64,000 bases of DNA from an uncultured Candidatus Saccharibacteria bacterium (GCA_964556655.1 CAZKWY010000001.1:7528-71527); one strand, 5' to 3'; shown: positions 19,903 to 41,774, numbered from the stretch's first letter. The notes: generated by a model not told the origin, from the letters alone. Numbers and translations: made by a program.

Positions 19903-19906
19903 GCTT

Positions 19907-21698: not shown

Positions 21699-23579
21699 AT
21701 GAACGTTTTATCTTCTCTCAACAGTAAACAAAAACAAGCAGTCACGGCTCTCAAAGGGCCTGTTTTGGTTATTGCCGGACCCGGAAGCGGGAAAACCAGA
21801 TGTCTAACCCATCGCATTGCCTATCTCGTTACTAAAAAGAAAATCCCCGCTTTTAATATTTTGGCCGTCACCTTTACTAACAAAGCAGCCCAGGAAATGA
21901 AGGAAAGATTAGCTAAAATTCTTCCACCTTCTTTTCAGAGAATGCCTGATATCGGAACTTTTCACGCTATTTGCCTGCGGATTCTTAGGCAGGATATTGA
22001 CAAACTCCCCCAAACCTCTTTAGGCAGAAATTTTGTCATTTACGACGAAGCTGACCGATTATCCTTAATCAAAAAAATTATTAACGACTTAGCTGTTAAC
22101 ACCGACCAATTCAAGCCTTCTACTCTGCAAAACACTATTTCTAGAGCAAAAGACGAATTAATTGACCCCGGATCATACCAGGAACAAGCTAAAGAATATT
22201 TTCCTAAAACAGTCGCCCAAGTTTATCAAGCCTATCAAGAGGCTCTAGCTCAAGCCAATGCCCTTGATTTTGACGATCTTATTATGCTAACCGTTAAGCT
22301 TTTCCAAACACGGCCCGATGTCTTAAAAAAATATCAAAACAGATGGCGCTATTTTTTGGTAGATGAAGCCCACGATACCAATTTAAGCCAATACAAACTG
22401 ACCAACCTTTTGGCGCGAAAGCGCCAAAACTTGTGGCTGATTGCTGATCCAGACCAGTCTATCTATATGTGGCGAGGCGCCGACTTTAGAAATATTCTTA
22501 ATTTTGAAAAAGATTATCCTAAGGCTCGCGTTATCCTTTTAGAAGAGAACTACCGCTCTACTAAAAATATCTTGGAGGCTGGCCATTGCGTTATTAATAA
22601 AAACACCCAACGCCGAGAAAAAAATCTTTGGACAAAAAATGGACAAGGCGCGCCCATTAATTTAATTCTAGCGTCAAACGAAAGAGCGGAAGGCGATTTT
22701 ATTGTCAACGAAATTGAGGGATTAATTAACGAAAAAGGATATACTCTAAAAGACTTTACCGTTCTTTACCGCACCAATGCCCAATCCAGAGCCATTGAAG
22801 AAGCCTTCCTGCAAGCCGGCTTCCCCTATAGAATTATTGGCACAGTCAAATTCTACGAAAGAAAAGAAATTAAAGATATTTTATGCTACCTCCGACTAAC
22901 AGCCAACCCTCAAGACCTCGTCAGTCTGCAAAGAGTAGTCAATCTCCCCCCGCGCCGCCTTGCTAGATACAGCAAAGATCCGTCTTTGGTCTTAAGAAAA
23001 AACGACAAAGCCCTAGAGAGTTTCAATCAGATAATGAACTCTTTTAGAATTTTCAGCCGGCAAAATTCCTTAACTGCTCTTATTAAAAAAATAATTGAAG
23101 AAATCGGCTATGAGAAATACATTAAATCCTTTGCCTCTGACGCAGAAGAAGGGGAGAGAAGATGGGAGAATGTAGAAGAAATTTTTACCGTGGCTAGCCG
23201 CTATGACAAAGAAGATCCAGGCACAGGATTAGAAAAATTCCTTGAAGAAATCAGTCTTTTGACAGGCCAAGACGAGATTGAAACCAACAGCGAAGTTATT
23301 AACTTAATGACTCTTCACTGCGCTAAAGGATTAGAATTTCCTGTTGTCTTTATCGCCGGATGCGAGGAAAGCATCCTGCCTCATTCCAGAAGCCAGCTTC
23401 ACCGGGACCAGATGGAAGAAGAAAGACGCCTATGCTATGTCGGCATTACCCGGGCTAAAGAAATTAGCTATCTTACTTTCACTAATCAACGCCGCCTGTG
23501 GGGACAAACAATGGCTAATTATCCTTCCCGCTTCCTTTCCGACTTGCCCGAACACCTCATCGCCTTCCGCCAATTCTAG
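21699..23579 (+). CDS. UvrD/PcrA/Rep-family ATP-dependent DNA helicase
   Basis: 626 aa. Motif I AGPGSGKT, Ia TFTNKAAQEM, II FLVDEAHDTN, III DPDQSIYMWRGAD, V LEENYRST, and VI TLHCAKGLEFPVVFI are all present. Confidence 0.85.
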   Translation: MNVLSSLNSKQKQAVTALKGPVLVIAGPGSGKTRCLTHRIAYLVTKKKIPAFNILAVTFTNKAAQEMKERLAKILPPSFQRMPDIGTFHAICLRILRQDIDKLPQTSLGRNFVIYDEADRLSLIKKIINDLAVNTDQFKPSTLQNTISRAKDELIDPGSYQEQAKEYFPKTVAQVYQAYQEALAQANALDFDDLIMLTVKLFQTRPDVLKKYQNRWRYFLVDEAHDTNLSQYKLTNLLARKRQNLWLIADPDQSIYMWRGADFRNILNFEKDYPKARVILLEENYRSTKNILEAGHCVINKNTQRREKNLWTKNGQGAPINLILASNERAEGDFIVNEIEGLINEKGYTLKDFTVLYRTNAQSRAIEEAFLQAGFPYRIIGTVKFYERKEIKDILCYLRLTANPQDLVSLQRVVNLPPRRLARYSKDPSLVLRKNDKALESFNQIMNSFRIFSRQNSLTALIKKIIEEIGYEKYIKSFASDAEEGERRWENVEEIFTVASRYDKEDPGTGLEKFLEEISLLTGQDEIETNSEVINLMTLHCAKGLEFPVVFIAGCEESILPHSRSQLHRDQMEEERRLCYVGITRAKEISYLTFTNQRRLWGQTMANYPSRFLSDLPEHLIAFRQF

Positions 23580-23647
23580 GACTGTAATTCTAGGACAGTC
23601 CTTTTTTGACAGTCCTTCAAGGACTGTAATTCTAGGACAGTCCTTGG
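23578..23647. repeat. Palindromic repeat element, copy C (about 1.7 units, inverted relative to copy B)
   Basis: AGGACTGTAATTCTAGGACAGTCCTTTTTTGACAGTCCTTCA plus a partial second unit. It begins at the helicase stop codon and ends 3 nt before the rsmA ATG. Confidence 0.8.
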
Positions 23648-23649: not shown

Positions 23650-24519
23650 ATGAACCTTACTTCGCCCAAAATATTAAGGGAAACATTTAAAAAACACGAC
23701 TTTAAACCCCAAAAAAGACTGGGGCAAAATTTTTTAATTGACCAAAATATTGTTAATAAAATTGTCAAAATAGCTCAAATAAGTAAGAAAGACACTATTT
23801 TAGAAATCGGTCCCGGCACAGGCGCTATTACTAAAGCACTAGCGCAAAAGAGCAAAAAAGTAATTGCCGTAGAAAAAGACCCTCAACTATCAAAGATCCT
23901 AAAAGAAAACCTTTCTTCTTTTAAAAACACATCCATTATTACCTCCGACATCCGCAGGACTGTAATTCTAGGACAGTCCTTTTTTGACAGTCCTTCAAGG
24001 ACTGTAATTCTAGGACAGTCCTTGAAGGACTGTCCTTGGAAGGTGGTGGCTAATTTGCCTTATTATCTTAGCCAGCATGTTATTAGAAAGCTTTTAGAAT
24101 TAGAAAATCAGCCGGAAAAAATAGTTCTTCTAGTTCAAAAAGAACTTGCCCAAAGGATTTGCGCCAAGCCCCCGCGAATGAACATTCTAGCTGTTTCAGT
24201 CCAGTTTTACAGCCAGCCCGAAATTAAAGGATATGTTTCCAAAACTTGTTTTTGGCCTCAGCCAAAAGTAGATTCTGCCATTATTGAAATAAATCCCCTT
24301 GAAAAAACACAAGAGATATCCTCGGAGAGATTTTTTAAAACAGTTAAGGCCGGATTTTTTGCCCCCCGCAAACAGCTAGCCAATAATTTAACCAGTCAAC
24401 TAAAAAAAGGAAGGGAAGGAATAATAAAAGCGATCAAAAAGACGGGGATAGAAGAAAAGGCCAGAGCAGAAAACTTAACCATTAAAGAATGGATTAATTT
24501 AAGCCGTTTATTAACATAA
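23650..24519 (+). CDS. rsmA: 16S rRNA (adenine1518/1519-N6)-dimethyltransferase RsmA/KsgA, carrying an in-frame 28-codon repeat-element insertion
   Basis: The SAM motif ILEIGPGTGAITKAL and motif IV VVANLPYYLS are present. The insert [30 protein letters not shown] (nt 23956-24039) is encoded by the palindromic element and sits just before motif IV. The track's longer ORF (from 23344) overlaps the helicase in another frame. Confidence 0.8.
   Translation: MNLTSPKILRETFKKHDFKPQKRLGQNFLIDQNIVNKIVKIAQISKKDTILEIGPGTGAITKALAQKSKKVIAVEKDPQLSKILKENLSSFKNTSIITSDIRRTVILGQSFFDSPSRTVILGQSLKDCPWKVVANLPYYLSQHVIRKLLELENQPEKIVLLVQKELAQRICAKPPRMNILAVSVQFYSQPEIKGYVSKTCFWPQPKVDSAIIEINPLEKTQEISSERFFKTVKAGFFAPRKQLANNLTSQLKKGREGIIKAIKKTGIEEKARAENLTIKEWINLSRLLT
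23956..24039. repeat. Palindromic repeat element, copy D (84 bp), inside the rsmA coding sequence
   Basis: It is near-identical to copy C plus a GAAGGACTGTCCTTGG extension. The length is a multiple of 3 and the reading frame is preserved across it. Confidence 0.8.
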
Positions 24520-25239: not shown

Positions 25240-26046
25240 ATGATGAAAAAAAAGCAATCTTCTATTAAAAAGAAAATTTTCGGAGGCTTTTTTATCTTTT
25301 CAGCGGCAATGGTAGGATGGTTTTTAATCAAAGACGATCCCGCTAAAAATAGCCCTAAAAATAACGGACCAGAAAGATTCAGCGGAGAAAAGCAAAGCAT
25401 CCAAGATCTTCCCGGCGGAAAAGACTCTGACAATGATGGGCTTACCGACAGAGAAGAGAAGGCTTACGGCACGGATCCATATAATCCTGACTCCGACCAA
25501 GACGGATATTTAGACGGAGAAGAAATCGCCGCTGGATACGATCCGCTAGTTCCTTCTCCTGGGGATAAAATCACCAATTTGGAAAATTTCTTGGCTAAAA
25601 TTAATCCCAGCCTAGACATTCAGATGCCGGATGAAAAAGATCTTAATATTTCTCTAGAAACAGGGCCAGAAGCATTAGAAAAATATTTTCAAGAAGCGCA
25701 AACTCCGTCTGAATTAAAAAACCCTGATTTATATAAAGAAGCCTTTCTGGAAGCCAGGCTGGGCAAAAGCGAAAAGATTAACCAGATTATCGCTAATCTT
25801 AAACAAAGCCGCCAGCGCCTTCGACAGATAACCGTCCCCATAGAAGCGCTCCAAGTCCATAAGCTAACTTTAGCTTTAATGACTCCCTTAATCCAACTTT
25901 TTGAAGACCTTAAATCGGCCCAAGACAGCCCCCTTAAAACATTAGTCTCTATCAAGGGTTCTCAAGAATTAGTCCCTTATACCGTAGCCCTCCAAGCACA
26001 GACAAATAATTTGGCGAAAAAATACGACATTACTATTCCTCAATAA
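25240..26046 (+). CDS. Membrane-anchored protein with thrombospondin-type-3-like Ca-binding Asp repeats
   Basis: 268 aa. An N-terminal TM segment is followed by DSDNDGLTDREE and DPYNPDSDQDGYLDGEE repeats. A TGgTATAAT extended -10 lies upstream. Confidence 0.45.
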   Translation: MMKKKQSSIKKKIFGGFFIFSAAMVGWFLIKDDPAKNSPKNNGPERFSGEKQSIQDLPGGKDSDNDGLTDREEKAYGTDPYNPDSDQDGYLDGEEIAAGYDPLVPSPGDKITNLENFLAKINPSLDIQMPDEKDLNISLETGPEALEKYFQEAQTPSELKNPDLYKEAFLEARLGKSEKINQIIANLKQSRQRLRQITVPIEALQVHKLTLALMTPLIQLFEDLKSAQDSPLKTLVSIKGSQELVPYTVALQAQTNNLAKKYDITIPQ

Positions 26047-27558
26047 ATGACCGCAAAGAGAACAGCTAAGCTAATAATGATTATAACCGTTTTTAGCGCG
26101 GGCGTTTTTTTGGCGCCCTTAAAAAGCCAAGCGGCTGTACCAGTAGTCGTTTTTGGAGAATACCTTAATCAAATTAAAACCGTTTCCGATATCTCTGATA
26201 CCGATCCGGAAGCAGATCTTCAATCAAAAATTATCGGCGAAAGAGAATACACCGAAGGAGATCCCTATAACGCCACTGTTACTCATACACAGAAAATGCA
26301 AGGATCACCTGACGACAAAGAAATCGTCCTTGACAGCCTTTTAGATAATATCAACGAAAGGATCGTAGAGCTTGAAAGAGCTATTGCCGAAGAAGAAAAC
26401 AAAGAAGATTCTAATAAAGCGCTAATCGACACCATGGAAGAAAGCGTTGGAGAGCTGACAGCTCTACGCGCTAGAATTAACTCTTTAAAAAGCCAACTAG
26501 CAGAAAGCGTAGCCCTTGATGTTCATATTGTCAAAGATACTTCTGATACTCTTGACGACTTAAAAGCGCTGGCAAGAGAAAAGCTGGCCAGAACACAGGT
26601 TTCAGAATTAAGCCGCGCCTTTAATAACCAATACGAAGAGACCATTATTAGAAATTTCCACGACTATATGTATCAAGAGCCGGTCCAAAGCGCCTATAAC
26701 TATTTAGATAATGTCCATTTCAAAGCAGACGAAACTGTTATGAGCGAAGAGAAAAAGGAAGCTATGAGCGTTGCCGTAAAAAGAAGCCTTGTTTCTTCAT
26801 ATTCTGACCCCGCGCTTCCGGAAAAAGATCCTGAATTTGTCGGTATAGAAAACATTTTTAAAAAAGAAGAGGGCGGCGGATGGGACCAATGGCGGCTAGC
26901 CCTCAAACCTAATAATAACGATTACGGCATTTTCTTTTCTGCCAAAAAAGCAGCCCAAGAATTAGCAGAAAGCAAAAAAGAAGAACAAATCACTAAAACA
27001 CTAGCCTATCAAGGCATTAAGCCCATTACTGGCGAAAACGAAAAAGGGGAGCTTGGACCAGGCGGCAATAGCAAAGAAGAAATTCAAGTTCCAGGCAGTT
27101 TAATCGCCTCCAACAAAGCGGCCGTTACCGAAGCCCAGTTTAACTTAGCGGCTACGCCGGAATACGCCGCTCCCCAAGACGCTCTAGGCGCTCCCGGCCA
27201 AACTCCTGAACCGCCCTACAAAGACGTCACCGCCGGAACGGCCAGCCAGGAAAATATTGTCTGGTGGAATAATGTAGCAGCAGACAGCCTTAGCGCTTTA
27301 GAAGATATTTTCTGCGCCTGCTTCCCTGAATTCTGCCGCAGCTATGAAATTTTTGACTTAAGCGGCATTATTCCTGGACTTAAAGTTCCCAGCGTTAATA
27401 TTTGCGGAAGAAGTTTTGATGTTTGCCGCTATTATCCTGAAATGTGCGAGAGCCTTTTAGGCCCGCTTGAAGGCCTTTTAGACAACTTAAACGACTTAAC
27501 CGATGTTAACGTTACCATTCCAGGCCTGCCCGACATTCTGGACGATATCGGAATTTAA
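26047..27558 (+). CDS. Secreted coiled-coil protein with a cysteine-rich C-terminal module
   Basis: 503 aa with a signal peptide and long predicted coiled coils. The C-terminal ~80 aa contain 8 Cys (CACFPEFC...NICGRSFDVCRYYPEMC). Confidence 0.45.
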   Translation: MTAKRTAKLIMIITVFSAGVFLAPLKSQAAVPVVVFGEYLNQIKTVSDISDTDPEADLQSKIIGEREYTEGDPYNATVTHTQKMQGSPDDKEIVLDSLLDNINERIVELERAIAEEENKEDSNKALIDTMEESVGELTALRARINSLKSQLAESVALDVHIVKDTSDTLDDLKALAREKLARTQVSELSRAFNNQYEETIIRNFHDYMYQEPVQSAYNYLDNVHFKADETVMSEEKKEAMSVAVKRSLVSSYSDPALPEKDPEFVGIENIFKKEEGGGWDQWRLALKPNNNDYGIFFSAKKAAQELAESKKEEQITKTLAYQGIKPITGENEKGELGPGGNSKEEIQVPGSLIASNKAAVTEAQFNLAATPEYAAPQDALGAPGQTPEPPYKDVTAGTASQENIVWWNNVAADSLSALEDIFCACFPEFCRSYEIFDLSGIIPGLKVPSVNICGRSFDVCRYYPEMCESLLGPLEGLLDNLNDLTDVNVTIPGLPDILDDIGI

Positions 27559-27573
27559 TAACAAACGATCATT

Positions 27574-28392
27574 ATGTTCAGCCTTAAACAGCTTCTCGCC
27601 ATCTGTCTAGGATTATCAGCAATAATTTTTTTAAATAGTATTGATATTAACAGCCACAAACAAAACAACCTCTCGCCCCAACAAGCTTCTCTGCCCGAAC
27701 CCAGCCTTTTGCCCCTAACAGAAAACAAGGCTTCGCTGGAATATTCCTCCCAAAACACCCTCGCAGAAGAAATTAAAACTATTGCCCAAAAAATAAACTA
27801 TTACAGCAAGGAAGATAATGAAGACGACGTTTGCGAAGCGACATTCCTAATTGAAGAAGACAGTCCCGAAATAAGAAACAACATCCAAGCAGTCTTTGAC
27901 TGGGTAGGCAAGGAAAAAGAAGTTTCTAAAGCTCAGGATCAAGGCATGGAAGCGCCCCAGGAAATAGTTGAAGGGACAAAAGATGTTGTTAGGTCTAGAA
28001 TTAAAGAAGCGGAAAGAATGATTGAAGAAATAGAAGAAAAAAAAGAAGAAGCGGCTCTGTCTATTGAAGAAATGGTCCAGATCCAACACTACCAACAACA
28101 AATTGACTATATCGACGAAATGGTAAAAAAACTGAAAAGAACGATGTCTTTAATAAGCACATCTAATAAAATTCCCTTGGGCATGCAATGCGGAGACGGA
28201 ACACATCCTAAAGAAGGTATTGGCCATAGTTTTTTTGCCTTTTGCTGTTCTGACTGCTGCCTATCGTGCCTGCCTAAATGCTGTTATTGCGGATGCTGCA
28301 TCCCCAGCTGTGAAGTATTGTGCCAATGCCTCTACGGATCATCTGCCTATTTATGGGACTCTGTAACCGGCACTTGCGGATGCGGCAATTAA
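27574..28392 (+). CDS. Secreted protein with an extremely cysteine-rich C-terminal tail
   Basis: 272 aa with a signal peptide and an acidic coiled-coil region. The last ~70 aa contain about 20 Cys (QCGDGTHPKEG...CCSDCCLSCLPKCCYCGCCIPSCEVLCQC...GTCGCGN). Confidence 0.45.
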   Translation: MFSLKQLLAICLGLSAIIFLNSIDINSHKQNNLSPQQASLPEPSLLPLTENKASLEYSSQNTLAEEIKTIAQKINYYSKEDNEDDVCEATFLIEEDSPEIRNNIQAVFDWVGKEKEVSKAQDQGMEAPQEIVEGTKDVVRSRIKEAERMIEEIEEKKEEAALSIEEMVQIQHYQQQIDYIDEMVKKLKRTMSLISTSNKIPLGMQCGDGTHPKEGIGHSFFAFCCSDCCLSCLPKCCYCGCCIPSCEVLCQCLYGSSAYLWDSVTGTCGCGN

Positions 28393-28399
28393 AAACTTT

Positions 28400-30280
28400 A
28401 TGAAAGGAAAAAAGACAATAAAAAACAAGAAAAAAATTTTGGGCGTTTTCCTCGTTTTTATTTTTCTTTTTTCTTCTTTTCTTACCGCGCCCGCCGCTAA
28501 AGCTCAAACTTTTGCAGACTTCGGACCCGGAGGAGGACTGGGCAGTTATACAGTAGGAAAATACATAGGGAACAAAGCTTTGGGAGCAATAGGAGACGCC
28601 TTTCAATGGCTCCTTGAAAAAGCGCTTATGATTGTAGGAGGACTAATGGCCTTAGTAGGAGAATTGTTTGACTACGCCCTCAACATCAGCAGTTTTACTG
28701 ATTCGCCCACTATCCGGGCCGGATGGGAAATAAGCAGGGACATCGTTAATTTATCCCTTATTCTCATCCTTTTAGTAATTGCCTTTGCTACAACCTTAAA
28801 AATTGATAACTACAGCATGAAAAGCCTTCTACCCAAGCTGATTGGCGTAGCTCTTTTGGTTAATTTTAGTTTAGTGGGATGCGGTCTGGTGATTGATTTT
28901 ACTCAATTAATAGCTGGTTTTTTCATAGAAAAAGCTGGCGGATCTTTTTCGGTAGAGCTTATGAGGGGGATAGAACTGCAAAAAGCGATCCAAATGAACG
29001 AAGAAGGAGTTAGAGAAATTGCCACTAATCCAGACCCGTCAGGGAAAGTTATCGTCAGCCTTATAGGAAGCATTATTGTCATCCTTATTGCCACTCTAGC
29101 CCTTTTTCTAGGAGCGTTGCTCATGATTTTTAGAGTGGCCGCTCTATGGATTCTACTTATTTTGGTCCCCTTGGCGCTAATGGCAATGATTTTACCTGCT
29201 ACTCGCGGATCTTGGAATTCATGGGTCAATCAATTTTTAAAATGGTCGTTTTTCGCTCCTCTTTATGCTTTCTTTGTTTATCTCGCCCTTTTGACTGCCC
29301 AAAAAGGGTTGGTCACTCAATATATTACTTCAACCGGAACTGGAAGCAAAGACGGCCAGCAGGCTACCGTTGCCGGACTTAATGGTTTTTCCAACATTGA
29401 TTTGATCCTTAATTATGCTGTAGTAATAGGATTTGTAGTCGGCGGATTGATCGTAGCCCAAAAAATGGGCATAAAAGGATCTAACTTCACCATGAGAACA
29501 GCCAAAGGGTTTGGCGAAAAAGCGAAAAAAATAGGCAAAAGAACAAGCATGGCTCCCGTTAAATGGGCTGGCCGAACGGCGGCCACAAGCGGAGCCATGA
29601 AAAAACTGACTGAAAGCGCGAGTGAAAGCAGATTTGGCAAAAAAATCTCTAAGCCGCTCCAACAATTCACTGAAAAAGAGAGAAAAGCTATGGCAGAATC
29701 AGAGAAGAAGTTTGACGACTTTACCGATGAAAACGTGGTCAGAAGATTTCGCGCAGGGAACCCACGCGAAAAAGCAGCCGCGGCTAAAATACTGGCCAAA
29801 AGAAAAAAGACAAACCTCTTAAATAGAAAAGGAGAAATGGACAAAGCAATGAAATTGGCCAGAAGATACAATGTCCAAGGAGATTTGGAAAAAGCGCGTC
29901 TTGACTTAGCCGCTGACGTCGACAAAACTATTGCCGGACTTAAGCTTAATGATACAGAAAAAATCCAGTCGGAAAAAATAACCCCCGAAATTGCCAGAAA
30001 ATTCACTGCTCAGTTTGAAGCAGGAGGCAATTTTAAAAGCAAGTTCCTAGAAAAAATAGGCGAGACAAACCCAGCCCTCATAGACAAGCTAGAATCAGGC
30101 CTCAAGGAACGCTGGACCGCATTGCGTCCAGAAATTAAAAAATACTTTATGGGCCCGGGAGGACAAGCTTTATGGAATGTCGCTCCTTCAGAAAGAGAAA
30201 CCTCCGAAGGCCCAACGACTACAACTAATAGGATAACCAAACATGGAAAAATACAAAGCGAAAAAATACGTCCAGCCTGA
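28400..30280 (+). CDS. Polytopic membrane protein, VirB6/TrbL-like (type IV secretion channel component)
   Basis: 626 aa. A signal peptide is followed by at least 6 TM helices and a hydrophilic K-rich C-terminal domain. The architecture is typical of VirB6/TrbL/PrgH-like proteins, and it is adjacent to PrgI-like and VirB4 genes. Confidence 0.5.
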   Translation: MKGKKTIKNKKKILGVFLVFIFLFSSFLTAPAAKAQTFADFGPGGGLGSYTVGKYIGNKALGAIGDAFQWLLEKALMIVGGLMALVGELFDYALNISSFTDSPTIRAGWEISRDIVNLSLILILLVIAFATTLKIDNYSMKSLLPKLIGVALLVNFSLVGCGLVIDFTQLIAGFFIEKAGGSFSVELMRGIELQKAIQMNEEGVREIATNPDPSGKVIVSLIGSIIVILIATLALFLGALLMIFRVAALWILLILVPLALMAMILPATRGSWNSWVNQFLKWSFFAPLYAFFVYLALLTAQKGLVTQYITSTGTGSKDGQQATVAGLNGFSNIDLILNYAVVIGFVVGGLIVAQKMGIKGSNFTMRTAKGFGEKAKKIGKRTSMAPVKWAGRTAATSGAMKKLTESASESRFGKKISKPLQQFTEKERKAMAESEKKFDDFTDENVVRRFRAGNPREKAAAAKILAKRKKTNLLNRKGEMDKAMKLARRYNVQGDLEKARLDLAADVDKTIAGLKLNDTEKIQSEKITPEIARKFTAQFEAGGNFKSKFLEKIGETNPALIDKLESGLKERWTALRPEIKKYFMGPGGQALWNVAPSERETSEGPTTTTNRITKHGKIQSEKIRPA

Positions 30281-30752
30281 AGAAAAGCTGGAGGAGATAA
30301 AAAATCCTAGACGAAAAGAAGTTTTTCGCCGCTATTTTAATCTTCCGCCAAAATTAAGAGAAACTCTTTTAAGCACAGAAACGGCCGAAAAGATGTTTCA
30401 GGCGGCAAGAAAAAACAGCTTAAACGAAACCCAGCACTGCCAAGCATCTTGGGCGGCAGGAATGATTATCTTAGGCGAAATTAATATCGTTAATTTCGTC
30501 AAGAAGCTGGAAGAGAAAAGCGGCTTAGAGAAAGAAAGCGCCCGCCAGCTGGCAAGAGATATTAATCAACTCATTTTTTTGCCAGTTAAAGAAGAGCTCA
30601 AAAAAATTCATCATATAGAAGAATGGCCCAGAGAAAAAGAAGCTTCTCCAGCCCCAGAGAAACCTGCCATGCCCGAACCGGAACCAAAAAAACAAAAAGA
30701 AGCTCCTTCCGGCAACGGAAGAATAGTAGATTTAAAAAATAATATTTATTAA
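30243..30752 (+). CDS. Hypothetical protein in the T4SS-like cluster
   Basis: 169 aa, hydrophilic, with no recognisable motif. Its start overlaps the upstream gene by 38 nt. Confidence 0.35.
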   Translation: MEKYKAKKYVQPEEKLEEIKNPRRKEVFRRYFNLPPKLRETLLSTETAEKMFQAARKNSLNETQHCQASWAAGMIILGEINIVNFVKKLEEKSGLEKESARQLARDINQLIFLPVKEELKKIHHIEEWPREKEASPAPEKPAMPEPEPKKQKEAPSGNGRIVDLKNNIY

Positions 30753-30758
30753 TGGGTT

Positions 30759-31055
30759 ATGCAATTTAAAGTGCCACAATTTATTGAAATGGAAGATAAG
30801 ATTGTCGGCCCCTTCACCTTAAAACAGTTTCTCTATCTGGCAGGAGGAACGGGCGTTCTTTTTGTTTTATGGTTTATTCTAAGATTGGGCGCTTTTATTA
30901 TTGCCGCTATTCCTGTTGGCGCCGCCTCTTTATTGCTGGCTTTTCGCAAGGTAAACGGCCGGCCCTTTATCAGTTTTTTAGGCTCTTTTTTTAAATATCT
31001 TAGCAAGCCTAAAATATATCTTTGGCGCAGGAACAATAATAATAATTTTTCCTAA
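30759..31055 (+). CDS. PrgI-family (VirB3-like) small membrane protein
   Basis: 98 aa. The N-terminal VPQFIEMEDKIVGPFTLKQFLYLAGG, followed by two TM helices, matches the PrgI family pattern of Gram-positive T4SS. Confidence 0.55.
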   Translation: MQFKVPQFIEMEDKIVGPFTLKQFLYLAGGTGVLFVLWFILRLGAFIIAAIPVGAASLLLAFRKVNGRPFISFLGSFFKYLSKPKIYLWRRNNNNNFS

Positions 31056-31058
31056 ATT

Positions 31059-31712
31059 ATGGCCTTATCAGACAACAGCACTCCCATTCAAAAACACCTA
31101 GACATTAAAGAAATTAAAAACGATGTAATCATCCTTAAGAGCAAAGAGTTAAGGGCTGTTTTGATGGCCAACAGCTTAAATTTTTCCCTCAAATCAGCTG
31201 AAGAACAAGACGCTATTGTCTATCGCTACCAAGAATTTCTTAATTCGCTTGATTTTTCTATCCAGATTTTAACTTCCTCAAGGCAATTTGACATTACTGA
31301 ATATATTGAGTCACTGGAGAAAAGACAGGCGCGCCAAGAAAACGATTTGTTAAAAATTCAAACTGCTGAATATATTGACTTTATTAAAAGCCTTTCGGAA
31401 ATAGCTAACATCATGGCCAGTTCTTTTTATCTGGTTGTTCCTTACACGCCTAATGTTTTTAAAAAAGGAGGCTTTTTAAGCGGCCTCTTTGGCAAAAAAA
31501 AGAAATCAGAGGCAGAAAACCAGCATTTCCAGACTTTGAAAAACAGCCTCTGGCAAAGAGTAGAATTCGTGGCTACCGGCCTTAGCTCTATGGGCATCCG
31601 CACTGCTCCCTTAAAAACCGATGAATTGATTGAGCTTTTTTACAAACTTTACAATCCCGGCGCGAAAGAAGAACCTGAGCTGCCTAGAAATAAAAAACTT
31701 AAACTGGAATAA
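31059..31712 (+). CDS. Hypothetical protein in the T4SS-like cluster
   Basis: 217 aa, soluble. Its stop lies 2 nt before the VirB4 start, so translational coupling is likely. Confidence 0.35.
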   Translation: MALSDNSTPIQKHLDIKEIKNDVIILKSKELRAVLMANSLNFSLKSAEEQDAIVYRYQEFLNSLDFSIQILTSSRQFDITEYIESLEKRQARQENDLLKIQTAEYIDFIKSLSEIANIMASSFYLVVPYTPNVFKKGGFLSGLFGKKKKSEAENQHFQTLKNSLWQRVEFVATGLSSMGIRTAPLKTDELIELFYKLYNPGAKEEPELPRNKKLKLE

Positions 31713-31714
31713 TT

Positions 31715-33526
31715 ATGGCTTGGTTTAATAAAAACAAAAAAGAAGAGTCTTTCAATTTTAACGGCCAATCTTTAGATCTTACAGATTTAATCGCCCCGGC
31801 GGCTTTAAAGATTGACTCTAACTATATCCAGCTGGGAGAAAAATACGGCCGGACTATTTTTGTTTTTAGCTACCCGCAAGCCCTTACTACAGGATGGCTT
31901 TCTCCCATTATTACCCTCGACCAAGAAACTAATATTTCTCTTTTTATCCATCCTGTAGACACTAGCGACATCTTGAAAAAAATGACCAAAAGGGTAGCTG
32001 AAATTCAGTCTCAGGTCTCTTTACAAATGGAAAAAGGCAAAGTGCGAGACCCCAAACTAGAAGCGGCTTTGCGCAATGTGGAAGAATTGCGCGACCGCCT
32101 CTTGCAAGGACAGGAAAAACTTTTTAAATTCGGCCTTTATATCACCTTCTTCTCTCGGTCGGTAAAAGAGCTTGATGATATTGAAACCCGCATTAGAGCG
32201 CTTTTAGAAAACCAAATTATTTATGCTAAACCGGCTATTTTTCAACAGGAAGAAGGATTTACTTCAACTCTACCCTTAGGCAGCGACAAGCTCTACATCA
32301 ATAACAGCCTTAACACCGGCCCTCTTTCCTCGGCCTTTCCCTTTGTTTCCTCTGACTTAACTGATAACAAAGGAGTTCTTTACGGCATTAACCGACACAA
32401 TAATTCTCTGATCCTTTTTGACAGATTTAGCCTAGAAAACGCCAATATGGTTGTTTTTGCCAAATCTGGCTCGGGGAAAAGCTATTCCGTAAAACTAGAG
32501 GTGCTAAGATCGTTAATGCAGGATACCGAAGTAATTATTGTTGATCCAGAAAAAGAGTATAAATATCTTACCGAAACAGTAGACGGCTCTTTTATTGACA
32601 TCTCTCTAGCTTCACCCAACCACCTAAACCCTTTTGATCTGCCTCTTCCCGGACCCGACGAAAACCCAGCCGACCTACTCAAAGGAAATATTATTAACCT
32701 TGTCGGTCTCTTGCGCATTATGCTGGGCGGACTGACTCCAGAAGAAGACTCTATTATTGACCGCGCCCTCCATGAAACTTATGCCGCCCGCGACATCACC
32801 CCCAAATCAGATTTCAGTAAAATTAATCCTCCTTTAATGCAAGATCTCTGCACTATTTTAAGGGGCATGGAAGGCGCAGAGGGGCTGATTAATCGGCTAG
32901 AAAAATATATCAGCGGAAGCTACGCGGGGTTTTTTAACCAGCCGACTAATGTTAAACTAGATAAAAAACTAGTCACCTTCAGCATCAGAGACATGGAAGA
33001 AGAGCTAAGGCCGATGGCCACTTATGTTATCCTGCGCTATATTTGGAACATTATTCGTTCGAAAAGAAAGAAGCGCCTGATGGTAGTAGACGAGGCATGG
33101 TGGATGATGCAACACGAAGATGCTGCTTCTTTCTTATTCGGCATTGCCAAAAGATGCCGCAAATACTATCTGGGCCTAACGACTATTACTCAGGACGTTA
33201 CAGATTTTATGAAGTCAAGATACGGCAAACCGATTATCACTAACTCTTCACTCCAACTTCTCCTTAAGCAGTCGCCAGCAGCCATAGATTTGGTCCAGAA
33301 AACATTCAACCTCACCAACCAAGAAAAATATATGATCTTGGAAAGCGCGGTAGGGGAGGGCATCTTTTTCGCTGGCGGCAAACACGCAGCCATAAGGGTT
33401 GTCGCCTCCTACACCGAAGATCAGGTTATTACTTCTGACCCAGCCCAGCTCCAAGAAATTGAACGAGCCAAAAGAGAGCTAGATGAAGAAGAGGGCAATG
33501 GACCGCCTTCTGATAATATTTATTAG
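31715..33526 (+). CDS. VirB4/TrbE/CagE-family type IV secretion ATPase
   Basis: 603 aa. The N-terminal CagE_TrbE_VirB-type region (IDSNYIQLGEKYGRTIFVFSYPQALTTGWL) is followed by Walker A (FAKSGSGKSYSV) and Walker B (RLMVVDEAWWMM), then a YLGLTTITQDVTDF segment. Confidence 0.8.
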   Translation: MAWFNKNKKEESFNFNGQSLDLTDLIAPAALKIDSNYIQLGEKYGRTIFVFSYPQALTTGWLSPIITLDQETNISLFIHPVDTSDILKKMTKRVAEIQSQVSLQMEKGKVRDPKLEAALRNVEELRDRLLQGQEKLFKFGLYITFFSRSVKELDDIETRIRALLENQIIYAKPAIFQQEEGFTSTLPLGSDKLYINNSLNTGPLSSAFPFVSSDLTDNKGVLYGINRHNNSLILFDRFSLENANMVVFAKSGSGKSYSVKLEVLRSLMQDTEVIIVDPEKEYKYLTETVDGSFIDISLASPNHLNPFDLPLPGPDENPADLLKGNIINLVGLLRIMLGGLTPEEDSIIDRALHETYAARDITPKSDFSKINPPLMQDLCTILRGMEGAEGLINRLEKYISGSYAGFFNQPTNVKLDKKLVTFSIRDMEEELRPMATYVILRYIWNIIRSKRKKRLMVVDEAWWMMQHEDAASFLFGIAKRCRKYYLGLTTITQDVTDFMKSRYGKPIITNSSLQLLLKQSPAAIDLVQKTFNLTNQEKYMILESAVGEGIFFAGGKHAAIRVVASYTEDQVITSDPAQLQEIERAKRELDEEEGNGPPSDNIY

Positions 33527-33528
33527 CC

Positions 33529-33912
33529 ATGCCAGATTACAGCCAATCATTTAATCAAGAAAGAAGCCTTGAAAGAAAAAAAGCTAGAAAAATTTCAGCA
33601 AGAAAAACTGCTGGAAGTCCTCCAAGCGATCTTAGCGGGGTAGAATTTATTGTTTTTGGCAGCATTGCTTTTTTAAATGACGCTTGCGACTGGATAGGAT
33701 TAGACCTGCTTTTATTTAGAGCTCTTGATTTAGCCACCTCTTTTATTCTCGGTTCATGGTGTTGGCTCCGGCTAAAACGCTTTCCTACAACTAGGTTTGC
33801 CTCTACTTTTGCCATAGAAATTATCCCATTAGTCGGAGATGTTTCCCCTGCCTGGACAATTTTTGTCATCAGCCTTTATTTAGAGCAAAGAAAAAATCAT
33901 AACGCAAAATAA
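33529..33912 (+). CDS. Small membrane protein in the T4SS-like cluster
   Basis: 127 aa with 2-3 predicted TM helices. Confidence 0.35.
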   Translation: MPDYSQSFNQERSLERKKARKISARKTAGSPPSDLSGVEFIVFGSIAFLNDACDWIGLDLLLFRALDLATSFILGSWCWLRLKRFPTTRFASTFAIEIIPLVGDVSPAWTIFVISLYLEQRKNHNAK

Positions 33913-34650
33913 ATGAACCGCCAACTAATCAAAAATTTCGCCGCTCTTTTTCTAGTAGCAATTTTTTTTGCTTTTACAATAAGCGTTGGGGCGCAAAATG
34001 CCCCCTCTGCTAGCCCTATTGATCTGTTATGGTCAACAAACGCCTACACTCCTCCTCTGTACCAAGGCAAAGCTCTGCCTATTAGAGAAAGCACAATAGA
34101 AATCGCGGCTATTACTTATTCTACAGACCGGCCCGATAGCGAGCTTTTTTTTAGCTGGTATTTAAACAACCAACTGATGAGAGAAGAATCAGGGCGGGGC
34201 AAAAATACTTTTTCCTTTGAATGTTTCCGTCCTTCTTGCCAGGTCAGGCTCCGGCTTCAAGACGACAACAAGCTGCCTCTTGCGGACAAAGAGATATCTA
34301 TTCCTCTTGTCTCGCCAGAAGTGGTCTTAGAAAAAAGACACTTTTCGTTAGACGGGCCCCGCTTATCAGGCGCCTTTGCCCTAATTTCCGGCCAAGAAAG
34401 CTCCTTTTTTATCCAACCCTACTTTTTTAATATCAACCAGCCCGAAGAGCTGGCCTATGAATGGCGCTTGGGCGATAAAAAAGCTCAAAATACTAGCGGA
34501 GAGAACCCCCAAGAGCTCGTTTTAAGAGTTGATAATATTAAAAAAATCGTTTCTGGGAATCTGTTTTTTAGCGCTATTGACTCCCAGACCAATCAATCAG
34601 CGAAAAACAGCGCTTTGCTTTATTTAATTCCTCAAAATAATGGCCAATAA
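33913..34650 (+). CDS. Secreted hypothetical protein
   Basis: 245 aa. It has an N-terminal signal peptide and no recognisable domain. Confidence 0.35.
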   Translation: MNRQLIKNFAALFLVAIFFAFTISVGAQNAPSASPIDLLWSTNAYTPPLYQGKALPIRESTIEIAAITYSTDRPDSELFFSWYLNNQLMREESGRGKNTFSFECFRPSCQVRLRLQDDNKLPLADKEISIPLVSPEVVLEKRHFSLDGPRLSGAFALISGQESSFFIQPYFFNINQPEELAYEWRLGDKKAQNTSGENPQELVLRVDNIKKIVSGNLFFSAIDSQTNQSAKNSALLYLIPQNNGQ

Positions 34651-35251
34651 GTCATCACTGCTTGTTTTTATTATTCTTTTTTCTCTCTTTTCAGCGGCTC
34701 TTCTTTTGGCTCCGGAAAATTCTCTTGCCGAATACGAATTGATCATAGATTATCCGGAACTTCCCTTTGAAAACGCCGGAAGCCCCGAAGAAGGCCTGCT
34801 TAGTTATCTTCGTTATATTTATATGGGAAGTATTAGCATTGTAGCCGCCACTGCCTTGATCATGCTGGTTTATTCCGGCTTTGTTTATATGCTTTCGGAG
34901 TCGGTCACCTCTAAAGAAAGCGCGATAGAAAGGATCCGCTCTGCCCTTTCCGGCCTTCTTTTAGCTTTGATGGCTTTTCTTATCTTAAACACCATCAATC
35001 CAGACTTAGTAAGCTTAAGGGAGCCAAAAGCCGCCCCTATCAATATTGAGGGGTCTGGGAAAGAAACAAATTGGTGGGGAGGAAGATATAAATGTTATTA
35101 TCCAAAAGGAAACGAGGAACCTTATTCTATAACATGCAATGGGGAAAACGAAACAAGCTGTCAGTTAAACTGCGAGGAGGCTTGCAAGGAAGGTTGCGAA
35201 GTAAATTGCGCGCCAGTCAACAATTGCGAGCCATCTCCAGCGTCAGAATAA
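34640..35251 (+). CDS. VirB2/TrbC-like T4SS pilin candidate with a cysteine-rich C-terminal extension
   Basis: 203 aa. A signal peptide is followed by two hydrophobic helices separated by a short loop, which is the VirB2-like topology. A C-terminal tail carries 10 Cys (CYYPKGNEEPYSITCNGENETSCQLNCEEACKEGCEVNCAPVNNCEPS). Confidence 0.45.
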   Translation: MANKSSLLVFIILFSLFSAALLLAPENSLAEYELIIDYPELPFENAGSPEEGLLSYLRYIYMGSISIVAATALIMLVYSGFVYMLSESVTSKESAIERIRSALSGLLLALMAFLILNTINPDLVSLREPKAAPINIEGSGKETNWWGGRYKCYYPKGNEEPYSITCNGENETSCQLNCEEACKEGCEVNCAPVNNCEPSPASE

Positions 35252-35257
35252 TAATAT

Positions 35258-36349
35258 ATGTCTTACAAAAATATTCTTATTGGATTAATCATCGCTTTTT
35301 TGGCCAGCCTAGGCGCTTTAATCGCCTATGAGGTCTATTTTAGCGACGAAGAAGAGCCGTCCGGGGGAAAAGAAAAATCCCTCCTTGGCAATCTTAAAAT
35401 TATTTCTGAAGAGCCAGCGTTAGGGCCGATTGTTGACGGACAAAAAGTGAAATACTATCTCCAAAACAACGGCAATGTTTTTCAAGCCAATTTTGACGGA
35501 TCGGACACTAAAAGAATCTCTTCTGATATTTTAGAGGGCCTTGTTAAAGTAATCTGGTCGCCCCAAAAAGACCAAGTCATTACTTTTTTTGAGAAAGAAA
35601 ACAGCATAGAAAAATATCTCTACGATTACCAGAGCCAAAAAGCTCAGCTTTTAGACCAAAACATCAAAGAAATTTCCTGGCATAATCGACAAAACACCAT
35701 AGCTTATCAATATACCAGCCAAGAAACAAATAATATTAGCCTGAAACAATTCGCTCAAGGGCCTCATAAAATTATTTCTAAAACACCGTTAAAAAATCTC
35801 CTCCTTGATTGGCCAAAAGAAAACAAGCTCGCTGCCTCAACGAAAGCCAGCGGACTAGTCCAGGGCTTTATTTATTTAATTGACACTGCTTCCGGCAAAT
35901 GGGAAAAAGCAATGGGAGGAAAATACGGCCTCACTGCCCTTTGGTCGCCCCAAGGCGACAAAATTCTTTTTTCTGAAACCAACGAACAAGGAAAAAAGCT
36001 AAGCCTAAAAATGCTTGACCTTAACAGCCAAAAAACTATAGCCACGGAGTTTGAAACATTGGCTGAGAAGTGCGTCTGGAGCCGCGATAACCGCAGTATT
36101 TTTTGCGCCGTGCCAAAAGAAATTCCTTCTTCTTCAGTTTTGCCAGACGATTACTATAAGGATAAAATAACTTTTTTTGACGATATTTGGTGGATTAATC
36201 TAGACACTCAAGAGACAGAAAAAGTTTTTGATTCTTCAGGGATAAAAGGCGAACCGTATAATATTTCTAAAATTATTCTTTCAGAAACAGAGGACCATCT
36301 TGTTTTCCTTAACAAGCAAGACGGTCACCTTTATTCGCTAGAGCTATAA
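35258..36349 (+). CDS. Membrane-anchored TolB-like beta-propeller protein
   Basis: 363 aa. An N-terminal TM segment is followed by PD40/WD-like repeats (VIWSPQKDQVITF, ALWSPQGDKILFS). Confidence 0.45.
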   Translation: MSYKNILIGLIIAFLASLGALIAYEVYFSDEEEPSGGKEKSLLGNLKIISEEPALGPIVDGQKVKYYLQNNGNVFQANFDGSDTKRISSDILEGLVKVIWSPQKDQVITFFEKENSIEKYLYDYQSQKAQLLDQNIKEISWHNRQNTIAYQYTSQETNNISLKQFAQGPHKIISKTPLKNLLLDWPKENKLAASTKASGLVQGFIYLIDTASGKWEKAMGGKYGLTALWSPQGDKILFSETNEQGKKLSLKMLDLNSQKTIATEFETLAEKCVWSRDNRSIFCAVPKEIPSSSVLPDDYYKDKITFFDDIWWINLDTQETEKVFDSSGIKGEPYNISKIILSETEDHLVFLNKQDGHLYSLEL

Positions 36350-37511
36350 TAAGCCAGAAAATAATTGCTAAATCGTTCTTCCAATAAGGCGTGTCGAAAA
36401 GGCCGTGAACAAGAAAATATAATAAAACTGCCCCCAGATAAAACTGCCAGCCCTGAAATTGAGGGGCTTTTTTAAATGAAAAAACTTTTTTAAAAACGGC
36501 CAATAAAAGCCAGATAAAACCAACAATGCCCAGCAGTCCTGTCTGCAGCCAAAAAGCTAGGAAAATGTTATGTGGCTGGGGAACAGCCCACTCTGGATAA
36601 GGAGGAAAATTATGCTGATAAGCCAAATAATATCTCTGGAACACTCCCGGCCCAATGCCGACAAAAGGGTGATCTTTAGCGATTTCTAAGGCGCTTTGCC
36701 AAATAACCATCCTTGATTTAAGGGAAGGATAAGAAAAATCAACTATTCTTTGCAATTTTTCCTCTGGCCACTGGATTAAAAAGAAAATAATTATCATTAA
36801 AAAAAAGAGAATGATGAGATTTTTTCTATCCGAAAGAAAAGCTGCTTTCTTTAATCCAACCAGCAAAAAGAAAAAGGCTCCGACCAAGCCAAGCCACGCG
36901 CCATAAGAAAAAGTCAGATAAAGAACAAACGCCATACAAAAATAACCAACGGACAAAACAGTTTTTTTAGCTTTTTTTCTCGCTAAAGGCCATAGTCCTA
37001 GAGAAATAGCCAAAATCGGAGCTAAATACATAGCTAGATGATTAGGAGAAAGGAAAAAAGCTTTTAATCGACCGTCATAAGTCAAATCCCCATTGAGCCA
37101 ATACCAAAGACTAACTAAGCTGACTAAGGCGCCTGAGAGAAATAATCCTCGCAGAAGAGAAATAAAATAGCTTCTTTTTTTGATAAGATCAATTAAAACC
37201 AGATAAAAAAGAAGGGGCGCCAAAAACCACCCCTTCCATATGCCAGCGCTGGCAGAAAGATTGGAGGAAAAGAAAACAGCTAAGGTAGCTCCAAAAAAAA
37301 TTAAAAAAACAGGATATGGAAAATCAAAAAAAGATATTTTTTCTTTTTGAAGAGCCTTTTTTAAAAGCCATAAAAAGAAAGTAAGATAAATAAGGATCTC
37401 AATAAAATTAAAAGGGACCCAGCCAGCCTTAAAACGCAGCAAATAGAGAGGCAGGCAAACAATAATGAGATAGGAAAAATGTTTTACTAAACTATGGATT
37501 AAACTAGCCAT
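36309..37511 (-). CDS. O-antigen ligase (Wzy_C) family membrane protein
   Basis: 400 aa with about 10 TM helices. A periplasmic loop carries HPFVGIGPGVFQRYY and HNIFLAFWLQTGLLG. Confidence 0.6.
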   Translation of the reverse strand: MASLIHSLVKHFSYLIIVCLPLYLLRFKAGWVPFNFIEILIYLTFFLWLLKKALQKEKISFFDFPYPVFLIFFGATLAVFFSSNLSASAGIWKGWFLAPLLFYLVLIDLIKKRSYFISLLRGLFLSGALVSLVSLWYWLNGDLTYDGRLKAFFLSPNHLAMYLAPILAISLGLWPLARKKAKKTVLSVGYFCMAFVLYLTFSYGAWLGLVGAFFFLLVGLKKAAFLSDRKNLIILFFLMIIIFFLIQWPEEKLQRIVDFSYPSLKSRMVIWQSALEIAKDHPFVGIGPGVFQRYYLAYQHNFPPYPEWAVPQPHNIFLAFWLQTGLLGIVGFIWLLLAVFKKVFSFKKAPQFQGWQFYLGAVLLYFLVHGLFDTPYWKNDLAIIFWLIIALANKGDRLAC

Positions 37512-40668: not shown

Positions 40669-40702
40669 AAGAATACTAATATAATACTTATTGGATTAAA
40701 TT

Positions 40703-41425: not shown

Positions 41426-41429
41426 TTTT

Positions 41430-41774
41430 TTATTTTTTTATTAAACCAGCCTTTTCAAATAAGCACGTTAATTCTTCTTTAATAAGCTGATATTCTTTTT
41501 CTATAATCTTATCAGAAGGAATAACTACGATATCAAAACAACATTTAAGCTTCTCTTTTTCATCAAAGACTATTTCTTCTAGCCTTTTTTTTATTTTATT
41601 TCGCCAAACAGCTTTCTTTGATATTTTCAGGCCTACTACAAAAGCAAATCTATTAAAGCCTAAATTATTAGCTTTAGTTTTGATTTTTAAAAAATCTCCG
41701 TAATAAGAACGACCTTGATCAAATAGTTCCTTAAAATCGTTCTTTTTTTTGAGCTTGTGTTTTCGTTTAAGCAT
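41430..41774 (-). CDS. rnpA: Ribonuclease P protein component
   Basis: 114 aa and basic. FGLKISKKAVWRNKIKRRLRE-like motifs are present, and the gene sits between rpmH and yidC. Confidence 0.8.
   Translation of the reverse strand: MLKRKHKLKKKNDFKELFDQGRSYYGDFLKIKTKANNLGFNRFAFVVGLKISKKAVWRNKIKKRLEEIVFDEKEKLKCCFDIVVIPSDKIIEKEYQLIKEELTCLFEKAGLIKK

Follow-up and report, generated by a model that had tools for sequence, protein, structure and literature searches.

The type IV secretion systems (T4SS) of Patescibacteria are the closest described relatives of the gene cluster analysed here. A survey of these systems (Quinonero-Coronel et al. 2025, PMC12102498) describes a monophyletic Patescibacteria VirB4 clade related to the conjugation class MPF_FATA. 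Members of this clade have TrsD, PrgI/VirB3, VirB6 and VirB2-like pilins of family PF18895; a relaxase is almost never, and a type IV coupling protein (T4CP) only rarely, found nearby, and the genes often lie beside dnaA, dnaN, rnpA and ksgA. Transposon sequencing (Wang et al. 2023, PMC10633639) showed that the T4SS and its pilins are indispensable for epibiotic growth in Southlakia epibionticum, whose system was noted to have neither a coupling protein nor a relaxase. A 2025 review treats these systems as a recognised new branch of the T4SS superfamily (PMC12857230). A 2026 preprint describes tubular structures, possibly T4SS pili, where a cultured relative meets its host, and the feeding of that relative on host RNA (bioRxiv 10.64898/2026.06.21.733656). 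The cluster described below, which very probably belongs to this group, lies at positions 25240-36349 of a 64,000-nucleotide (nt) stretch of DNA from an uncultured Candidatus Saccharibacteria bacterium (GCA_964556655.1 CAZKWY010000001.1:7528-71527). The whole stretch is called the window.

The cluster consists of 12 open reading frames (ORFs) on the plus strand, with junctions that range from -38 nt (an overlap) to +15 nt (Table 1). About 20 related loci share the gene order TSP3-repeat protein, large secreted protein, (small Cys-tailed protein), VirB6, 169-aa (amino acid) protein, PrgI, TrsD, VirB4, 127-aa protein, Ig-like protein, pilin and 363-aa protein. Counts of loci refer throughout to 80 related loci that were fetched; L081, L084 and L086 are further loci and are named separately. 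L081, a metagenomic contig, has all 12 genes in order at 34-74% identity, with uvrD and ksgA preceding them. An earlier note on this DNA had described a module at 26047-35251, an interval that takes in 10 of the 12 genes. The unit was extended to 25240-36349 because of the tight junctions and the conserved synteny. Every ORF named in the earlier note is present on the plus strand where the note placed it; two genes inside the interval, those for the 169-aa protein and the 217-aa TrsD protein, had been overlooked. The best explanation, which taken as a whole has a high probability, is that this is one 12-gene chromosomal operon that encodes a T4SS of the published Patescibacteria type, MPF_FATA-derived and non-conjugative, and that it has been inherited vertically and fixed next to the replication origin. 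The proposal that a compact VirB4-centred T4SS serves cell-cell interaction rather than conjugation is thus supported by families and folds, the dnaA context, synteny and the absence of a nearby VirD4. The implied novelty of the module did not survive. The same system is described in published reports (PMC10633639, PMC12102498, PMC12857230), and since the Patescibacteria T4SS is already published the system itself is not new.

Pfam was searched with 50 ORFs of the window, including all those of at least 210 aa and all 12 operon proteins, and NCBIfam with 10 of the 12. Transmembrane (TM) and signal segments were called by a hydropathy scan. The 603-aa protein is a VirB4 ATPase of the CD1110, MPF_FATA-related monoderm type. 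It scores 377 bits with the NCBIfam model conju_CD1110 (cut-off 325), matches Pfam P-loop_TraG (E=1.2e-25), scores 21.2 bits with CagE_TrbE_VirB (cut-off 21), and contains Walker A (AKSGSGKS) and Walker B (LMVVDEAW) motifs. The CagE_TrbE_VirB region and Walker motifs that had been read in this protein are thus confirmed by Pfam, NCBIfam and the sequence itself. Its close homologues number in the thousands and all come from Patescibacteria, also called the candidate phyla radiation (CPR). It is 56-81% identical to hundreds of Patescibacteria proteins, the top 120 homologues lying at 67-81%. A protein of identical sequence is encoded on a 94-kb NCBI contig. The best of more than 5000 plasmid VirB4 matches is only 35% identical, and those listed at the top come from Firmicutes and Actinobacteria.

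Two small proteins accompany VirB4. The 98-aa protein matches PrgI (PF12666) at 37.0 bits against a cut-off of 27 (E=4.9e-9), and both the motif KIVGPFTLKQFLYLAGG and the two TM segments on which it had been called a VirB3 analogue are found. Its gene lies directly upstream of TrsD-VirB4 in 72 of the 80 loci. The 217-aa protein matches VirB4_plasma (NCBIfam, E=7e-10, model positions 105-233) and TrsD (E=1.1e-5). In BLASTP its residues 3-215 align with residues 20-209 of a 797-aa VirB4 from C. botulinum (E=2e-5). The 603-aa protein covers the following part of that clostridial protein, residues 213-757, with its residues 20-554 (31% identity over 552 aligned positions). The two genes are 2 nt apart. 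Judging from these alignments, TrsD is the first ~200 residues of a full-length monoderm VirB4, split off as a protein of its own, and it corresponds to the TrsD of the published systems. A separate TrsD gene is present in 78 of the 80 loci, so the split is ancient and not an error; the L081 orthologue carries PF26593 (TraC-like).

The 626-aa protein has a signal peptide, a channel domain that extends to about residue 350 and includes ~7 hydrophobic segments, and a lysine-rich helical C-terminal domain of ~270 aa. Direct searches gave little. NCBIfam returned only CD3337/EF1877 (E=0.006), and a profile built from 40 homologues matched only coiled-coil noise in the PDB, with no solved VirB6 among the matches. 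The homologues were more informative. Several of 77 database homologues are annotated with PF04610 or PF19590, and a TrbL match was found in 13 of 40 that were rescanned (best E=2.8e-8). An AlphaFold2 model built from the homologue alignment has a mean pLDDT (predicted local distance difference test) of 80, and in a Foldseek search of the PDB its five best matches are all TrwI/VirB6 chains of R388 (probability 1.00, E 0.01-0.06); the fold search ranks TrwI/VirB6 and DotA first. On the strength of homologue annotation, the TrbL rescan and the predicted fold, the 626-aa protein is accepted as an extended VirB6/TrbL-like channel protein. Of the assignment in the earlier note, then, the polytopic character stands, and the family stands by way of homologues and predicted fold, not by a Pfam match of the protein's own.

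The 203-aa pilin has a signal peptide ending in SLA|E and two TM segments, the second of which ends in a conserved ...LNTINPDL. It matches the NCBIfam Mbov_0395 pilin-like model (E=5.1e-5), and homologues linked to it by BLAST reach 30-34 bits with PF18895 (T4SS_pilin), above the cut-off. A profile of the hairpin core made from relatives matches just one ORF in the window, the pilin gene (E=6e-34), so there is a single pilin gene here. The two-helix VirB2-like topology of the earlier note was borne out; its 10-Cys extension is in fact one of 8 Cys, all within the C-terminal 82 residues. If the usual VirB2 topology applies, this 82-aa tail would lie outside the membrane. The tail after the TINP motif varies between 1 and 399 residues among 29 relatives. 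It has at least 4 Cys in 19 of the 29 and no Cys in the other 10, and six of them share the pattern C-x2-4-C-x3-C-x3-5-C-...-W-...-C-x-C. None of these relatives' tails matches a Pfam family.

Extended T4SS_pilin homologues of other Patescibacteria have tails of up to ~400 aa with up to 30 Cys, and one family of them ends in ...C..GYWQ. Domain-sized extensions occur at L007:12865-13818, L020:3301-4242, L025:13139-14368, L029:7313-8554, L031:12104-13789, L034:12933-14309 and L035:10388-12079. The L034 tail gives a hint of a pilin-enzyme fusion, a lysozyme-like SLT_3 match at E=0.069, which is below threshold. The idea that the long tails of L019 and L034 are M15-peptidase or SLT domains was dropped as unsupported, with no PDB match, that single SLT_3 score for L034 from Pfam and no Pfam match for L019.

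The system would have descended from monoderm conjugation machinery of the MPF_FATA, CD1110/CTn2-like kind. The polytopic VirB6-like protein would be inserted by Sec and form the membrane channel and platform, and PrgI/VirB3 and TrsD would dock the VirB4 ATPase, as a hexamer, at the cytoplasmic face. VirB4 may then power the extraction of the Sec-inserted two-helix pilin from the membrane, leading to polymerisation of a VirB2-type pilus. Both ends of the pilin would face outward, and the pilus surface would then carry the 82-aa tail with its 8 Cys. The TSP3, 503-aa, 272-aa (18-Cys knob), tandem Ig-like and 363-aa proteins would form or decorate the part outside the cell and make contact with the host, and the fast-evolving Cys-rich modules could act as disulfide- or metal-stabilised recognition tips. 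Such a machine would serve contact-dependent exchange with a host, by import of host macromolecules or export of effectors, and not plasmid or integrative and conjugative element (ICE) conjugation. We regard the whole operon model, with this mechanism included, as very likely.

Several observations weigh against this explanation. The pilin itself scores 20.9 bits with PF18895, below the cut-off of 26.6, and the 626-aa protein has no Pfam VirB6/TrbL match. No VirB8-like or VirB1-like part (SLT, CHAP or VirB8 domains) was found in the operon proteins, 12 of which were searched with Pfam and 10 with NCBIfam. Promoter and terminator scans gave counts within shuffle expectation. The essentiality data come from Saccharimonadia, a class different from the present lineage (PMC10633639). 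Finally, the survey reports T4CP homologues in many Patescibacteria far from virB4, and a coupling protein elsewhere in the genome is possible (PMC12102498).

A different explanation, unlikely but worth weighing, is that the machine is mainly a nucleic-acid importer, similar to H. pylori ComB or the archaeal Ced system, that cooperates with the type IV pilus and feeds a nucleotide auxotroph. A type IV pilus cluster (PilB, PilC and three pilins) and uvrD lie immediately upstream, and VirB4 shows weak similarity to CedB and CedD (NCBIfam). In class ABY1, comF, recG and radA are located together with the T4SS genes, and import is the reading favoured by the authors of the survey (PMC12102498). 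The host-RNA feeding and contact-site tubular structures of the cultured relative also suit an importer (bioRxiv 10.64898/2026.06.21.733656). However, no DNA-binding or translocase partner (ComEC, T4CP or CedA-like) was found among the operon proteins with Pfam and NCBIfam. In S. epibionticum, deletion of comEC abolishes competence and leaves viability unaffected, whereas the T4SS is essential (PMC12857230). The sequence also gives no indication of the direction of transport. Import concerns the cargo only and is compatible with the structural part of the operon model.

The accessory genes encode unusual clusters of Cys. Among all 56 ORFs of the window, which are 0.84% Cys overall, the top three values of local Cys density belong to operon proteins, with 15 Cys in 60 aa for the 272-aa protein, 8 for the pilin and 6 for the 503-aa protein. 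In total the 272-aa protein has 18 Cys and the 503-aa protein 6, the latter in its C-terminal tail. The 503-aa protein has a signal peptide (...PLKSQA|AVPVV), one N-terminal hydrophobic segment and a long helical middle, and no Pfam or NCBIfam family was matched. Its L081 orthologue is 44% identical over the full length and keeps all 6 tail Cys. In other relatives this position is taken by proteins of 570-810 aa, whose similarity to the 503-aa protein is weak and confined to motifs (GGWxxW...KPxNNxYG). A coiled-coil character of these secreted Cys-tailed proteins, claimed earlier, is plausible from stretches of 66-76 residues that are free of Pro and Gly and rich in charge.

The 272-aa protein ends in a domain of ~75 aa with 15 Cys, here called the knob, with the motif PLGxQCGxxT...G[IV]G...CCxxCC...SCExxCxC...AYLWDSxTGxCGCG. 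It has no Pfam family. An exhaustive HMMER search of 1.84 billion cluster representatives gave only 10 matches at E<=1e-3, which align over the tail only and not over the N-terminal anchor and stalk. The domain is thus rare, with about 8 relatives in that set. The family defined by these matches has six invariant Cys, the PLGxQCG and AYLWDSxTGxCGCG motifs and a variable CC-rich insert. The context is informative in three relatives (L081, L084 and L086), and in each of them the domain belongs to a T4SS operon, beside the TSP3 protein. Some other relatives have no gene at this position.

Small anchored proteins just upstream of VirB6 at L003:3001-3681, L004:4547-5113, L006:5905-6474, L011:6229-6807, L014:5496-6452 and L021:5882-6490 end in extreme Cys runs of CCCxCCxxCCG-like form, for example CCCVCCVACCGI and CICLCHCCGPICCG. 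A profile search for homology between these proteins and the 272-aa protein was empty, and they are treated as analogous. Homology of the knob with the pilin tails of relatives was likewise not accepted: the best non-self matches among ~11,000 ORFs, from two relatives, have E=0.32 and 1.7, which is not significant and serves as a lead only. That these best matches are pilin tails is a non-significant hint of swapping.

The earlier note had called the combination of Cys-rich partners and a Cys-tailed pilin unusual. The clusters are real and operon-specific, yet Cys-bearing pilin tails are common in the lineage (19 of 29). No description of the Cys-rich parts was found in the literature that was searched. 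These modules are most likely host-contact or surface-recognition modules, a reading that fits their predicted extracellular topology, even-numbered conserved Cys cores, rapid turnover and strict operon linkage. A bolder proposal, which we hold to be possible and no better than tentative, is that the 8-Cys tail, the knob and the 6-Cys tail are interchangeable host-recognition tips of the T4SS pilus apparatus in Paceibacteria-like CPR. They would then be T4SS-linked adhesins of a new class, which are acquired, lost and exchanged between pilin and accessory proteins when the parasite moves to another host.

It is improbable that the pilin tail is a pro-peptide cleaved in maturation, or that the Cys clusters bind metal or Fe-S centres or belong to the structure of the basal apparatus. 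TrbC/VirB2-type pilins (RP4 TrbC) are established to lose a C-terminal peptide, and the many relatives with no tail (10 of 29 with 0 Cys) show that the pilin core can dispense with one. The tails of the relatives, however, are long, diverse and domain-sized (up to 399 aa), unlike a leader or pro-peptide. Runs rich in CC and CxC do look like metal-binding sequences, but the even Cys numbers of the conserved cores (6, 6 and 8) suit disulfide pairing, and six invariant Cys together with invariant non-Cys residues (PLGxQCG, AYLWDS) across the knob family argue for a folded domain. The predicted topology places all three Cys tails outside the membrane.

The chromosomal setting is that of a resident locus. 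Upstream are tRNA genes, nusA, RNase Y, the type IV pilus cluster, uvrD and ksgA; downstream are O-antigen-ligase and flippase genes, jag, yidC, rnpA, dnaA (42133) and dnaN. The operon ends ~5.8 kb from dnaA and is transcribed toward it. GC content is uniform (0.39-0.43) and the same in the operon as in its flanks. The closest tRNA gene is found upstream at a distance of more than 11 kb, the scanned ORFs of the window contain no integrase domain, and no att-like direct repeats were detected on the flanks of the module. As the earlier note had it, relaxase, VirD4 and VirB11 domains are absent from the 50 ORFs scanned with Pfam; the two PilB-type ATPases of the window belong to type IV pili. The possibility it had raised, that a relaxase and VirD4 just outside would make the module an ordinary conjugative element, was followed in the relatives. 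With a clostridial query at single-sequence phmmer sensitivity, the window gave no VirD4 or SLT match, and neither did the DNA up to 10 kb from virB4 in the 80 loci. Short Logan contigs, which reach about 1.7 kb past the right end of the window, show two response regulators there. A scan of species-representative genomes gave 211 relatives, the best-named of which are Candidatus Portnoybacteria and other metagenome-assembled genomes of the Parcubacteria group.

It is highly improbable that the module is part of an ICE or integrated plasmid whose relaxase, coupling protein and oriT (origin of transfer) lie outside the window and which conjugates in the ordinary way: the VirB6-PrgI-x-VirB4 order matches that of conjugative or mobilisable plasmids from clostridia, the score of VirB4 with the NCBIfam model 'conjugal transfer ATPase' is above the cut-off, only 64 kb of the 94-kb contig are visible in the window and T4CP homologues occur elsewhere in many Patescibacteria genomes according to the survey (PMC12102498), but the housekeeping genes on both sides, the GC content of the flanks, the lack of an integrase, flanking direct repeats and a tRNA gene within ~11 kb, the identical synteny with uvrD and ksgA in independent genomes, the identity of VirB4 (at most 35% to any plasmid copy against 56-81% within the phylum), the absence of VirD4 within 10 kb of virB4 in 80 relatives, and the count of relaxases in the same source (only 103 Patescibacteria genomes, only 15 of them near virB4) all argue against it.

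Table 1. The 12 genes of the T4SS operon, with positions counted from the first nucleotide of the window
Feature	Coordinates	Strand	Basis or description
TSP3-repeat protein, 268 aa, first operon gene	25240..26046	+	Pfam TSP3_bac E=2.3e-14
Secreted 503-aa protein, 6-Cys tail	26047..27558	+	signal peptide, helical middle
Cys-tail (knob) protein, 272 aa	27574..28392	+	N-terminal anchor, acidic helical stalk, C-terminal Cys domain
Extended VirB6/TrbL-like protein, 626 aa	28400..30280	+	homologues and predicted fold
Conserved 169-aa protein	30243..30752	+	synteny; no family match
PrgI-family protein (VirB3 analogue), 98 aa	30759..31055	+	Pfam PrgI, 2 TM
TrsD/TraC-like protein, 217 aa, by alignment a detached VirB4 N-terminus	31059..31712	+	NCBIfam, BLASTP
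VirB4 ATPase, 603 aa	31715..33526	+	Pfam, NCBIfam, Walker A/B
Small 127-aa protein	33529..33912	+	2 weak hydrophobic segments
Secreted tandem Ig/FN3-like protein, 245 aa	33913..34650	+	AlphaFold2 model, Foldseek
VirB2-like T4SS pilin, 203 aa	34640..35251	+	signal peptide, two-helix hairpin, 82-aa Cys extension
Anchored 363-aa protein, last operon gene	35258..36349	+	N-terminal TM, sub-threshold beta-propeller match

The other operon proteins are mostly secreted or anchored; the 268-, 503-, 272-, 245- and 363-aa proteins each have one N-terminal signal or anchor segment. The TSP3 protein combines a membrane anchor with bacterial thrombospondin-type-3 (Ca-binding) repeats, its stop codon abuts the next start codon, and it is found upstream of the T4SS genes in 20 of the 80 loci and in L081, L084 and L086. 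The 169-aa protein lies between VirB6 and PrgI in 20 loci and is 46% identical in L081. It matches no Pfam or NCBIfam family and has no hydrophobic segment, so it is presumably cytoplasmic; the first ATG of its gene overlaps the VirB6 stop by 38 nt, and the true start may therefore lie downstream. The gene for the 127-aa protein, also with no Pfam or NCBIfam family, is directly downstream of VirB4 in 19 loci and in L081. The 245-aa protein has a signal peptide (...VGA|Q) and is conserved in 23 loci. Its AlphaFold2 model (pLDDT 80) has FN3/Ig tandems as top Foldseek matches in the PDB (best E=5.6e-7). This protein was considered as the missing VirB8 and rejected, the model being two Ig/FN3-like sandwiches and not an NTF2 fold. 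In 27 loci and in L081 the 363-aa gene follows the pilin gene, as it does here, where it converges on a minus-strand O-antigen-ligase gene at 36309-37511. The ectodomain of the 363-aa protein is probably beta-propeller-like, going by its sub-threshold Pfam match.

Other elements lie in the window. The type IV pilus cluster at 15569-21698 encodes a PilB that includes an MshEN domain, PilC, three N-methyl prepilins and an unassigned protein of 421 aa. It is ~3.5 kb upstream of the T4SS operon, with uvrD, ksgA and a small minus-strand glycine-zipper gene between, and a second PilB-type ATPase is encoded at 56295-58001. Type IV pili and the T4SS are both reported to be essential for epibiotic growth in Saccharimonadia. 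A palindrome resembling repetitive extragenic palindromic (REP) or miniature inverted-repeat transposable (MITE) elements, with the unit AGGACTGTAATTCTAGGACAGTCCT, is matched 7 times in the window where 0 matches are expected (among them 23578-23646, 23956-24024, 6002-6026 and 8158-8225). The space from the uvrD stop to the ksgA start holds one exact copy of 69 nt. Another exact copy is in frame within ksgA and encodes 23 residues in a loop that varies in length and immediately precedes the NLPYY motif; in the L081 orthologue 15 residues are missing from this loop. At 40210-44775, jag/R3H-KH, yidC and rnpA are on the minus strand and dnaA and dnaN on the plus strand, and the cumulative GC-skew minimum, at ~42-44 kb, coincides with this origin-type gene set. 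A minus-strand cluster at 48715-54913 encodes a pair of ATP-grasp proteins, of which one includes a Zn-protease-like domain, together with a 7TM 'inactive transglutaminase-associated' membrane protein; it is ~1.1 kb from the gene for a 531-aa protein with PKD and lamin-tail domains.

What the Patescibacteria T4SS carries, and how these very small parasites recognise their hosts, are questions that bear on much of bacterial diversity. The present locus is not a new system. Its added value is modest: the operon-linked Cys-rich modules, the fold-level identification of a VirB6, which sequence searches often miss in this lineage, an explicit TrsD/VirB4 split and a clean single-pilin example. The Cys-rich surface modules are candidate determinants of host specificity. 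If the tails are displayed on the pilus, they would offer handles for antibody labelling, for host-range prediction and for studies of parasite-host co-evolution.

The closest counterparts are the Patescibacteria T4SS (PMC12102498, PMC10633639), including SEML1_0006-0019 of S. epibionticum. As in these systems, a separate TrsD, PrgI/VirB3, VirB6 and a PF18895-type pilin accompany VirB4. No relaxase or T4CP is nearby, the locus is chromosomal and next to dnaA, dnaN, rnpA and ksgA, and the apparatus is of monoderm type, with no VirB7, VirB9 or VirB10. The differences are four. First, there is one pilin gene here and not an array of 2-11. Second, the pilin bears an 8-Cys C-terminal extension. Third, no VirB1-like hydrolase is adjacent. 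Fourth, the TSP3-repeat, Cys-tail-domain and 6-Cys-tail proteins of this operon were not found in the searched parts of those papers.

TraN of the F plasmid is a Cys-rich adhesin that stabilises mating pairs. The likeness to the Cys modules is one of analogy only: both are T4SS-encoded surface proteins, and in TraN many conserved Cys stabilise a receptor-binding ectodomain. The comparison showed no similarity in sequence, TraN resides in the outer membrane of diderms, and the Cys modules here are carried by a stalked anchor protein and by the pilin itself. The solved channel subunits TrwI/VirB6 of R388 and DotA of Legionella have only 12-19% sequence identity to the 626-aa protein, which has the ~270-aa helical C-terminal domain in addition; no VirB5 partner was identified here.

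With the Firmicutes MPF_FATA module of CTn2/CD1110 type on the C. botulinum plasmid pCDC3875, the operon shares the core order VirB6 - PrgI - x - VirB4. The clostridial VirB4 is one protein of 797 aa, whereas here TrsD (217 aa) and VirB4 (603 aa) are separate. The VirB6 is an extended form of 626 aa here and has 260 aa in the clostridial plasmid. pCDC3875 has a VirD4 (CD1115), an SLT hydrolase and a MOBP relaxase, none of which is in the operon, and it has no pilin, of which the operon has one.

The T4SS of Mycoplasma ICEs is a further counterpart. PrgI, TrsD and VirB4 align in order with positions 39-103, 105-233 and 275-877 of the Mbov_0397 VirB4 model (NF045975, 894 positions), with E-values of 0.063 (weak), 7e-10 and 3.9e-85, so the three genes here appear to correspond to one fused VirB3-VirB4 protein in Mycoplasma. 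The pilin matches the Mbov_0395 pilin-like model (NF045849) of the same elements, and none of the scores against the Mycoplasma ICE models reaches its equivalog cut-off. The envelope in which the system works is wall-poor or monoderm in both cases. The Mycoplasma T4SS sits on a mobile ICE and conjugates, whereas the one described here is a fixed chromosomal operon.

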